This document shows, one piece after another, positions 7,069 to 14,859 of a stretch of 64,000 nucleotides of DNA (its first letter is position 1; each line of letters begins with the position of its first letter). The stretch is from Enterobacteria phage RB33: sequence record KM607001; one strand, 5' to 3'. Under the pieces are notes generated by a model that saw nothing but the letters and a program-made list of their open reading frames with translations, had not been told where the DNA came from and did not search any database. The position numbers and the translations under genes are program-made.

Positions 7069-7688
7069 TTATCTCATTTCAATAAAATCTACGAGTTCGG
7101 CATAGGATTTACGGAACATTACTTGATGCCCACCAATGATAACTTGGTCATCTGGTACTTCGTATACAGCAAGATAAAATCCTTTCGAAGATAATTCTTC
7201 CCGCTCTTCTCGCGTGAACCATCTCATCATATCATACTCACTAGCGAAAGCAAAATGATAAAGAGCTATAAACCATCCTGGAATATGATATTCTACTCCA
7301 ACATAATCTTTCTTGAACTTAGTATTAATTACTATATTAGCGTTTTTAACTAATAGTTTATCTTCGTGTGGTAAAGGAATTCTTTTATTATTATCGCTAT
7401 GATGCGATATTCTACTCCAACATAATCTTTCTTGAACTTAGTATTAATTACTATATTAGCGTTTTTAACTAATAGTTTATCTTCGTGTGGTAAAGGAATT
7501 CTTTTATTATTATCGCTATGATGCATAAAATTAGGTCTGTCATAACCTACGTGTAATAGCCACTCTTCACTCCATGAATCTATTATACTCCTGTACGGCG
7601 TTATTTGAACACAAAGATTTCGACGTATTGTTATAGCATCTTCATAATCAAGAATACTAAACGATGATTCAACACGATAAATTTTCAT
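7069..7688 (-). pseudogene. motB.2-position gene disrupted by a 119-bp tandem duplication (frameshift, premature TAG at 7350)
   Basis: ORF from ATG 7688 reads through copy 7406-7524 in frame, then out of frame in copy 7287-7405; removing one copy restores a 166-codon ORF ending at TAA 7069-7071. Confidence 0.6.
7287..7524. repeat. perfect tandem duplication, 2 x 119 bp
   Basis: 7287-7405 and 7406-7524 are identical base for base. Confidence 0.9.
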
Positions 7689-8936: not shown

Positions 8937-10256
8937 TCATACATAAAACACATCATAACGACCACGGGTAACACCAACATAAAGAAGCTGCTGTGCTAGT
9001 TCAGCATCTGCATAATGAATACAAGGTGTATAAATGAAAGCACGATCTACAGACATGCCCTGAGCTTTATGGAATGTTGACGCAGGAAGTGCTTTCACTT
9101 TACTGAACTGTGATTTAGCATCCCAAAAATCACTCCACGGAGCTTTTCCGCCTTTGTTCCAATTTTTATAAGTTTCTGCCGTTTTACCTAAAAATAAATT
9201 AAACTTATATAGCTCTTCATCAGATGAAATTATTTTAATCTTTTCACGATAATATTCATCATCGCCGTAAGTTTCTACTGTTAAATCCCAATGACGAATT
9301 AAGTATTCTCCAGAAACACCACGAGCTTTAACAAAGGTTGATGTATACTCTGCTTCTATAATACGAACTAATTGTCCGTTATTAAAAATAATTTCTGACA
9401 CAGGCTTTCCATCAATTTTATATGTTTTAATTAATGGTTCCTGCATTACAATAATTTCACCGACAATAAAATCTTTATCAGTTTCAAAAATCTTTTTACG
9501 AATAATGCTATTTAACTTGTCAACAGATTTATTCGTAAATGCCATTACGCGATTTTCAAACAAATCATCTAGTGATTTGACGATTGAAAAATAATTTACC
9601 ATAAAATCGCGTAAAGCGGTATCACCAGTAAATCCACGTACTCCATGCCCGTCAACAACTTTATCATAAATCCACTTACCATTACGAACATCAGTAGCTA
9701 CATCAATAATAGGAGCATTACTGCGTTTAACTTCAGTAAGTTCACACTGATAAAAATCTTTGTGTGTAAAGAATGGACTGATATAAGCAGTGTTTTCTCC
9801 TGGGTCAACAGGTCTGATTTGCTTATTATCACCTATTCCAATTATGGTACACCATGGCGGGATAGTTGAAAGCAGAATTTTAAATAGCTTTCTATCATAC
9901 ATTGACACTTCGTCGCAGATTAATACCCTGCATTTAGCTAAATCTGGTACTTCCTTCTGTTCAAAAAGAACATTTTCTTCATATGTTACCGGGTTAATTT
10001 TAAGAATGCTGTGAATAGTACTCGCTTCTTTCCCCGACAGTTTTGAAAGAATCTTTTTAGCTGCATGTGTAGGAGCTGCCAAAATGATACCAGTTTCGCC
10101 TGTTGATATTAAAGCTTCAATGATGAACTTAGTAAGAGTAGTCTTACCAGTACCAGCAGGTCCATTAATAGTTACATGATGTTTCTTTTCTTTAATAGCC
10201 CTCATAACGATGTTAAAGGCATTTTTCTGGCCTTCTGTCAAATCATCAAATGTCAT
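8937..10256 (-). CDS. dda: Dda DNA helicase (SF1B), 439 aa
   Basis: Walker A GPAGTGKT; 439 aa as T4 Dda. Confidence 0.9.
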   Translation of the reverse strand: MTFDDLTEGQKNAFNIVMRAIKEKKHHVTINGPAGTGKTTLTKFIIEALISTGETGIILAAPTHAAKKILSKLSGKEASTIHSILKINPVTYEENVLFEQKEVPDLAKCRVLICDEVSMYDRKLFKILLSTIPPWCTIIGIGDNKQIRPVDPGENTAYISPFFTHKDFYQCELTEVKRSNAPIIDVATDVRNGKWIYDKVVDGHGVRGFTGDTALRDFMVNYFSIVKSLDDLFENRVMAFTNKSVDKLNSIIRKKIFETDKDFIVGEIIVMQEPLIKTYKIDGKPVSEIIFNNGQLVRIIEAEYTSTFVKARGVSGEYLIRHWDLTVETYGDDEYYREKIKIISSDEELYKFNLFLGKTAETYKNWNKGGKAPWSDFWDAKSQFSKVKALPASTFHKAQGMSVDRAFIYTPCIHYADAELAQQLLYVGVTRGRYDVFYV

Positions 10257-12727: not shown

Positions 12728-12910
12728 TTATTTTGCCCAGGGAGCCCAAGGCGGAGGGTCAAGATGGTATGAAGCTAGTTCTTCTAGAAGAGCATCTGGG
12801 GCTTCAATTCCATAATTCTGTAATACTATACGGTACTCTTTCTTATAATCACTAGAATCATTCTGGTTATTCGTAGAATGATTATCTTCTAACATCTCAA
12901 ATAAATCCAT
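12728..12910 (-). CDS. hypothetical small protein
   Basis: 60-aa ORF in track. Confidence 0.45.
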   Translation of the reverse strand: MDLFEMLEDNHSTNNQNDSSDYKKEYRIVLQNYGIEAPDALLEELASYHLDPPPWAPWAK

Positions 12911-12918
12911 ATTAATTC

Positions 12919-13389
12919 CTAGCGATAAAAACCAAAATGACGATTAGCTTCAGCAATCTTTCTTTCTTCTTCGGACATTCTCCAGCGTAGTCCAACATCA
13001 AAATGAGCCCAGACCATCTTAACAAATGCATTTATATCTTTAATATCTTCAATAATGAATGTTTTACTTTTAAAAGGCTGACTCGCTAATTTAACTTTAT
13101 CATCTTCAAACAGGTCAAAAAGACCATATTCGTGAGCTCTTTTATAGCCTTTAATAGTTAAAGCTTCAGAAGAAGAAAATGGTGAATCTGTATTCTGCAA
13201 AATATCTTCAGTATGCTTTATAATTAGAATAATATTTTCTGGATATTTTCTTTCTTTTATATCTTTAATTAAAATATCCGGATTTTCTGCTAAAGGAATA
13301 ATTAACGAGCAATTTTTATCAAGTGTATTTACTGATTTACCTTCTTTAGACATAAATCCTATTGAATACAGTTTTGCTACTTCAATCAT
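12919..13389 (-). CDS. hypothetical protein
   Basis: 156-aa ORF in track. Confidence 0.55.
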
Positions 13390-13542
13390 GTGATTTCCTC
13401 TTGCCTACTAATGGACCATCAGGAATTTTGTTTTCCTGGATATACTTCTCATTTTCTTCCATCATTTTACTACCGATTTTAAGAAGCAAATCCAACGCTT
13501 CATTTGCTTTAACCTTAGCTTCTTCTAATGTCATATCTTTGT

Positions 13543-13746
13543 TCACGATTTATCCCCATAGATGTCTCTCATCAATTTAAGCGCTGAGCGTTCTAGTTTC
13601 TTTTCTTTCTCAGCACTAATCATTGATTTCATCCATTCTTCTGATTCGTTCTGCATTTCTTTATTTGCTTGTTCAACCCAACCATCGTCAATGTACATTG
13701 AGTTTGGTCTATTGAACCATTCAAACATTTTCTTCAGAACTTTCAT
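13543..13746 (-). CDS. hypothetical protein, 67 aa
   Basis: ORF in track; its start lies inside the proximal copy of the 91-bp duplication. Confidence 0.55.
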
Positions 13747-13868
13747 TTGTTTTACCTAAAACAACAGTAGGAGCATCGTCAATGTACATTGAGTTTGGTC
13801 TATTGAACCATTCAAACATTTTCTTCAGAACTTTCATTTGTTTTACCTAAAACAACAGTAGGAGCATC
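13683..13868. repeat. perfect tandem duplication, 2 x 91 bp with 4-bp CATC junction microhomology
   Basis: positions p and p+91 identical for p = 13683..13777. Confidence 0.9.
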
Positions 13869-14309
13869 ATCAAATTCATGAATTTTTAGCAAATTTGGAT
13901 GTAAACTATTCCATACAGAAGAAATAAAGTATGATAACGCATCTTCACTCGCAATTATAAATTTGTTTCCTTTGTCTATTTTCCAGTTATATACTGAATC
14001 GTACGAATAAAAAGATAAGGGTTTATCATTATATTGTTCTGCGCTAACATTAATGTATTCGGATTTAGTAAATGCTTCAATTGCTCTAAATGGAATATTT
14101 GGTACAGTTTCAATAATACCAATCTTTTTAAGTTTTATTTCAGCATCTTCTGGAACTGGCATTGAAACGAAATTTTCTACGAGATACATTGGGTCACAAT
14201 AACCCTTATCAATCATTACGGCTACAGTAATTGGAACATCTTTAGCAAACGACATGCTATTACTGCTAATATACATTTCAAACAAAATCGCTTCCATAAT
14301 TTTCCTCAA
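13812..14309 (-). CDS. hypothetical protein, 165 aa (mrh position)
   Basis: ORF in track; C-terminus and stop lie in the distal copy of the 91-bp duplication. Confidence 0.55.
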
Positions 14310-14650
14310 TCACAAGATGTAGATGAACAACTAGAATCACAAGAACTTCCGCATGAATCGCCCGTCCATACATGAACAGGAACATTAGTATCATATGAAT
14401 CAGAACTAGACTGTGTATTCTGTGTGTTAGATGATGTAGTAGGTGTTGACCAGCGCCAAGGATTTTTATAATATTCTTGGGCTTCTTCATAAGTCATAGT
14501 AACTGCTTCTACTGTTCCATCTCCCATATAAACATACTCAACTACAGTTAAAGGAAGGTAGTCATTTGAAATAGGAACTACACCTTCCCCAGGAGTCGTA
14601 GAGAAAAAATCCGTAAAGAAACTTTTAAACCAATTAAAGATAAACATCAC
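14306..14650 (-). CDS. hypothetical protein with Cys/Ser-rich C-terminus
   Basis: 114-aa ORF; ends [15 protein letters not shown]. Confidence 0.5.
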
Positions 14651-14859
14651 AAAAATCCTCTTTGAAATTCGACTCTTTGAAATCCACCCCAGTCAGTATA
14701 TCGCATTTCAGCATTGAACTCGACTGAACCATCTGCATGCATCATGAATGAATGCGTGACGACATCACAATCCCAGCTTTTCATACCCCATTTATCAGCG
14801 ATAGCTTTATCAAGAACCTTCTGGAGGTCTTCATTTGGTTTAATCCAACGATTTAACAT
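14647..14859 (-). CDS. hypothetical protein
   Basis: 70-aa ORF in track. Confidence 0.5.
   Translation of the reverse strand: MLNRWIKPNEDLQKVLDKAIADKWGMKSWDCDVVTHSFMMHADGSVEFNAEMRYTDWGGFQRVEFQRGFL

Follow-up and report, generated by a model that had tools for sequence, protein, structure and literature searches.

At the junction of the overlapping genes mrh and srh, the genome of the T4-like Enterobacteria phage RB33 carries a 91-nt segment as two perfect, directly adjoining copies, which are shared with the sister phage RB32. Very probably, this arrangement is a genuine microhomology-mediated tandem duplication that is private to one phage lineage and most likely selectively neutral. The analysis covers the first 64 kb (64,000 nt) of the RB33 record KM607001; this stretch is referred to as the window, and coordinates are counted from its first nucleotide.

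Structure of the repeated segment

Within the window, the sequence is identical to itself at an offset of 91 nt over positions 13683-13777 (95 nt). This identity reflects two 91-bp copies at 13683-13773 (copy 1) and 13774-13864 (copy 2), which are 100% identical and abut head-to-tail with no spacer, followed by CATC at 13865-13868, a 4-nt continuation identical to the opening of the unit. TRF reports the array at 13683-13873 with a period of 91, 2.1 copies and a score of 375, and finds just one further long-period array elsewhere in the window, a 119-nt repeat at 7287-7524. At the base composition found here, the probability that a match extends by 4 nt on a given side by chance is about 0.006, and chance is excluded as the source of the 91-bp repeat. 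On the transcribed minus strand, copy 1 is the downstream copy and contains the functional srh start codon together with the stop codon of a chimeric open reading frame (ORF). Copy 2 is the upstream copy; it contains the true mrh 3' end and stop codon, the chimeric ORF starts in it, and it corresponds to a 91-nt alignment gap in related phages.

The borders and the centre of the array are marked by related 9-nt sites. The left site, CATCGTCAA at 13683-13691, encodes on the minus strand the Asp-Asp at residues 20-21 of Srh (…MYIDD), and the right site, CATCATCAA at 13865-13873, encodes the Asp-Asp of Mrh (…EFDD). The two sites match at 8/9 positions, including the first 4 nt (CATC). A single repeat is kept between the copies at the novel junction site (13774-13782), where the sequence reads GGAG-CATCGTCAA and shares CATC with the right border CATCATCAA, which would place the crossover within CATC. 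An initial reading of the sequence alone, made by a model and referred to as the sequence-only reading, had described the identity at offset 91 and the CATC on both flanks of the unit. Both are borne out by the two perfect copies and the CATC that follows them, and the true match at the flanks is wider (8/9) than the four nucleotides first recognized. The same reading had assigned the last 19 codons and the stop codon of mrh to the unit. The stop codon is indeed contained in it, but the unit proper holds 16 full mrh codons plus 2 nt of an Ala codon, and a count of 19 residues is reached only if this Ala and the shared Asp-Asp are added.

Coding capacity of the mrh/srh junction

The upstream gene, mrh, occupies 13812-14297 on the minus strand and encodes 161 aa as annotated; a mechanically called ORF of 165 aa starts at an upstream TTG and extends to 14309. 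The gene is intact, ends in copy 2 and has RB32ORF025c as its counterpart in RB32. Its assignment to the T4 Mrh family follows from its syntenic position between mrh.1 and srh and from a precomputed Pfam hit to PF24070 (T4_MRH), and the exact 161-aa protein is found on at least 20 contigs. The downstream gene, srh (13543-13746, minus strand, 67 aa), is likewise intact and starts in copy 1. It is identified as T4 srh, an ortholog of T4p025, by a 67-aa ORF that overlaps the 3' end of mrh by 26 nt, and the exact Srh protein is widespread in Tequatrovirus contigs at the syntenic position. A function of Srh as a decoy of host sigma-32 is postulated in its annotation. A further observation concerns ModA.3 (12919-13389), which also matches PF24070 (T4_MRH), carries the RefSeq name 'Mrh transcription modulator' and is an Mrh paralogue encoded three genes downstream of mrh. 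In many phage records, modA.2, modA.3 and modA.4 are labelled 'molybdenum ABC transporter periplasmic molybdenum-binding protein', which looks like an annotation error spread from the gene name modA.

In single-copy phages, the srh start lies 26 nt before the mrh stop. The 91-bp unit carries this mrh stop codon and the srh start codon with 27 nt of its upstream context, and since both signals are contained in the unit, its duplication results in the gene order mrh (complete), chimera, srh (complete). This agrees with the sequence-only reading, which had both genes intact, with mrh ending in the upstream copy and srh starting in the downstream copy, and which had also predicted the 38-codon chimeric ORF. 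The latter lies at 13721-13837 on the minus strand and consists of Srh residues 1-21 and the 17 C-terminal residues of Mrh, with the Asp-Asp as the point of fusion. Its start codon and 27-nt upstream context are the same as those of srh, and its stop codon has the same overlap with the genuine srh start that the mrh stop has in phages with one copy. The genuine srh start in turn precedes the second mrh stop by 26 nt, which is the wild-type spacing. The sequence shows that mrh, srh, their 26-nt overlap, the ribosome-binding context of srh and the context for translational coupling have all been kept. A scan for promoter-like and terminator-like sites inside the 91-bp unit returned none.

The chimeric ORF is annotated in both phages, as RB32ORF024c (ABI94848.1) and RB33_025 (AIT74663.1), and its 38-aa product occurs on 2 contigs only among approximately 15 billion proteins. 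The depositors of RB32 labelled RB32ORF024c as 'unknown; possible partial duplication of srh' (DQ904452.1). The annotation thus concerns this very ORF with an identical sequence, but it mentions the srh part only and is silent on the exact 91-nt tandem repeat, the duplicated 3' end of mrh and the microhomology at the borders. A literature search retrieved no paper that discusses the 91-bp duplication or links RB32 with srh.

Occurrence in RB32 and in other Tequatroviruses

A megablast search of 50,697 phage records with positions 12900-14700 identified RB32 (DQ904452.1 and its RefSeq copy) with 100% identity in a single piece, while the other matches listed have spans that are about 91 nt shorter than that of RB32. 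The start of the RB33 window coincides with position 1 of the RB32 record, and over the 64 kb the two phages differ by one 119-bp indel and one SNP, being otherwise identical over 63,881 nt. Across the 64 kb compared, RB32 and RB33 are almost one and the same phage. Their published similarity is 99.93%, with genome lengths that differ by 117 nt, and this figure may mostly be due to the single 119-nt indel. The SNP (G at window position 10024, T at position 9905 of RB32) changes Dda residue 78 from E in RB32 to A in RB33. A78 is the common allele, present on about 200 contigs, and E78 of RB32 could have arisen as a private mutation or could stem from an error in the sequencing of this older record.

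The identical two-copy sequence and junction of RB32 and RB33 were not detected in other phages. A 40-mer centred on the junction has a full match in the two RB32 records only among the 50,697 phage records, a collection that does not contain KM607001, and single-copy phages match at most 29 nt of it. Searches for exact junction patterns in IMG/VR, the GTDB genome set and the JGI metagenome contigs gave no match. In five aligned genomes (T4, RB3, PD112, ZCEC14 and Kha5h), a single copy is found, each time with a clean 91-nt alignment gap. Among 37 loci fetched from relatives, the 35 that cover the site all have exactly one copy, and TRF finds no tandem repeat with a period of at least 30 in the 248 kb of these relatives; many of them are short-read assemblies, which could collapse repeats. 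The two-copy state was likewise found nowhere else among approximately 500 Tequatrovirus genomes. The 91-bp duplication therefore seems, from these genome comparisons, to be private to the RB32/RB33 lineage, and it can serve as a reliable marker of that lineage.

Several sequences required individual inspection. One single-copy locus with the exact Soc of RB32 was considered as a single-copy relative of RB32, but its identity to the window is no more than 94-97%, and it is uninformative on the stock. The repeat_region that the Kha5h record annotates within the matched part is only 12 nt long, lies in modA.3 and is unrelated. An apparent deletion of mrh and srh in the metagenome scaffold L037 (about 942-1355) is actually a 100-N scaffold gap that replaces most of the two genes, and a one-base indel in L038 (654-974) shortens mrh to 106 aa. 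Neither the gap nor the indel looks biological; both seem to reflect problems of assembly or sequence quality.

Probable origin by microhomology-mediated duplication

In all 35 relatives, the single unit is bordered on both sides by the 9-mer CRTCRTCAA. The border 9-mers are polymorphic at synonymous positions among Tequatroviruses. The exact pair CATCGTCAA / CATCATCAA is present in 6/35 relatives, including PD112, and this pair is inferred to be the state of the RB32/RB33 ancestor. Perfect 9-nt direct repeats at the borders occur in 12 of the 35, none of which has the duplication. The locus thus combines abutting copies, a single-copy allele with the repeat on both of its flanks, and one repeat at the junction. 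Conserved border repeats of which one is retained at the junction are the footprint of a microhomology-mediated tandem duplication, and the slipped-strand or microhomology-mediated origin that had been read from the RB33 sequence is upheld by the arrangement in relatives.

The following series of events is consistent with this footprint. The ancestor would have had a single copy, the 26-nt mrh/srh overlap and two CRTCRTCAA sites 91 nt apart, an arrangement still present in PD112 and other phages. Slippage during replication, or unequal exchange, between the two 9-mer sites, with the crossover inside CATC, would then have doubled the 91 nt; the two processes leave indistinguishable sequence. 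The product is the series mrh, 38-codon Srh-N/Mrh-C ORF and srh, in which each downstream start is placed in its native overlap context. Finally, since the locus lies in a dispensable early region and headful packaging could take 91 extra nt, the duplication would have been retained in the phage from which the RB32 and RB33 stocks both descend.

Persistence of the two copies

The genes mrh, srh and motB belong to a dispensable region (PMC6070864), and we infer that the 91-bp duplication is selectively neutral or close to it. Alternatively, the duplication could have been selected because an extra srh-type initiation region or the 38-aa peptide changes the output or activity of Srh and Mrh, for example by tuning a sigma-32 decoy function under heat shock, with maintenance of the two-copy state. 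Both this general reading and its heat-shock example are considered improbable. They are compatible with the modulation of late transcription by mrh and srh at 42 C and in rpoH mutants (PMC6070864), and with the chimeric ORF, whose native start context means that it is probably translated. In addition, two perfect copies are kept in both stocks despite possible recombinational loss; recombination of the T4 type might be expected to collapse 91-bp repeats, and their retention could reflect either weak selection or a low rate of loss. Against selection, however, RB32 and RB33 represent one almost clonal lineage with 1 SNP in 64 kb, and the duplication occurs nowhere else in the approximately 500 Tequatrovirus genomes, though 12 of the 35 relatives have an even better, 9/9 repeat at these sites. 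No signal of recurrence, divergence or conservation accompanies the two copies. The narrower proposal, that selection keeps both copies and that a 38-aa micropeptide or a doubled srh initiation region alters the manipulation of sigma-32 under heat stress, is more doubtful still, as what speaks for selection amounts to persistence in two sister stocks only. If selection did act, the locus would illustrate, on a small scale, how a microhomology duplication where two genes overlap can give rise to new coding sequence.

It is very unlikely that the repeat is an artefact of assembly or finishing, in which two contigs that overlap by 91 nt were concatenated untrimmed. The perfect identity of the copies and the restriction of the arrangement to one lineage would fit such an error, and manual gap filling was part of the RB33 pipeline: the 166,007-bp genome is a de novo assembly of 2x250-nt MiSeq reads at 3,355x (Yaung, Esvelt and Church; PMC4293622) that was finished with Velvet/Geneious, subjected to manual post-assembly gap filling and annotated by transfer from RB32 (PMC4293622). 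However, 250-nt reads are long enough to span the entire 182-nt structure, and a join would not be expected to land exactly on a pre-existing 8/9 direct repeat. Moreover, the junction is present not in one assembly only, as for a faulty join, but in two that were made years apart, in different laboratories and from separately kept stocks. RB32 and RB33 are maintained as separate stocks, and papers of 2009-2011 already cite the RB32 record, which is thus older than the sequencing of RB33. The sequence-only reading had held that its proposal would fail if independent isolates proved single-copy, or if a diverged two-copy arrangement were conserved across related phages, and had suggested a comparison with such phages as a check. 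The separately sequenced RB32 stock has the same two copies, all other relatives examined are single-copy, and a diverged two-copy arrangement was found in none. The least credible explanation, an ancient two-copy element conserved at the mrh/srh junction and since lost from other phages, finds no point in its support and is already refuted by the single-copy state of T4, RB3, PD112, ZCEC14, Kha5h and 30 metagenome or isolate contigs, and the copies are 100% identical.

Relation to known tandem duplications

A genuine, lineage-private duplication of this kind has well-studied counterparts in T4, where tandem amplifications and deletions arise by recombination between microhomologies of 6-10 bp (Srikant, Guegler and Laub, 2022; PMC9391042). 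Earlier T4 cases cited in that article are those of Kumagai 1993 (rII), Mosig 1987 and Wu 1991, together with Wu 2021. As in the T4 amplifications (PMC9391042), the RB32/RB33 copies are arranged head-to-tail in a T-even genome, the borders are short direct repeats of the parent and one of these is found at the junction. In contrast to the experimental T4 cases, which involve whole genes or kilobases, the unit is just 91 nt long and is present in two copies only. Furthermore, the event was not experimentally selected and doubled no complete gene, so that gene dosage is not changed.

The duplication is also of the same kind as the MTD class described in Schizosaccharomyces pombe (10.1101/2020.03.03.972455) and in a broader survey (10.64898/2026.02.28.708716), in which a microhomology-flanked segment gives rise to a perfect tandem duplication. 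The MTD class is described as universal across life (10.64898/2026.02.28.708716), and its members can revert by losing one copy (10.1101/2020.03.03.972455; 10.64898/2026.02.28.708716). Whereas MTDs were observed as subclonal variants, the RB32/RB33 case is fixed in a phage stock. The feature was already flagged in public annotation, belongs to a well-known mutation class and is an ordinary phage mutation, and its biological weight is little. Its value is that of a clean natural case, in which a microhomology duplication across overlapping genes spares both genes and their coupling and yields a small chimeric ORF.

A second duplication in motB.2

The 119-nt tandem duplication at 7287-7524, detected with TRF, consists of 100% identical copies and lies inside motB.2. 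It has zero microhomology and is absent from the RB32 record, being present in RB33 only, and a 40-mer centred on its junction has no match in the 50,697 phage records (KM607001 lies outside this collection). A suspicion that the extra 119 nt had been inserted artificially, raised by their absence from RB32, was rejected, since the window also differs from RB32 by the SNP and the ORFs specific to this duplication are annotated RB33 proteins. The duplication is either a mutation of the RB33 stock that followed the split from RB32 or an artefact of Velvet/Geneious gap filling and finishing. In the sequence-only reading, two independent exact duplications within 7 kb were regarded as unusual. Their independence is confirmed, given that RB32 lacks the 119-nt duplication, but no special significance attaches to their proximity. 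The 91-bp duplication occurs in two stocks that are nearly clonal, the 119-nt one still needs to be verified, and indels are tolerated where both are situated, so their co-occurrence says little, and their different histories make it weaker evidence of anything special. The 119-nt duplication shifts the frame of motB.2 and shortens MotB.2 from 166 to 112 aa. Both parts of the interrupted gene are annotated in RB33: the truncated 112-aa protein is RB33_012 (AIT74650.1) and a 53-aa C-terminal fragment is RB33_011 (AIT74649.1), each an exact match on a single contig.
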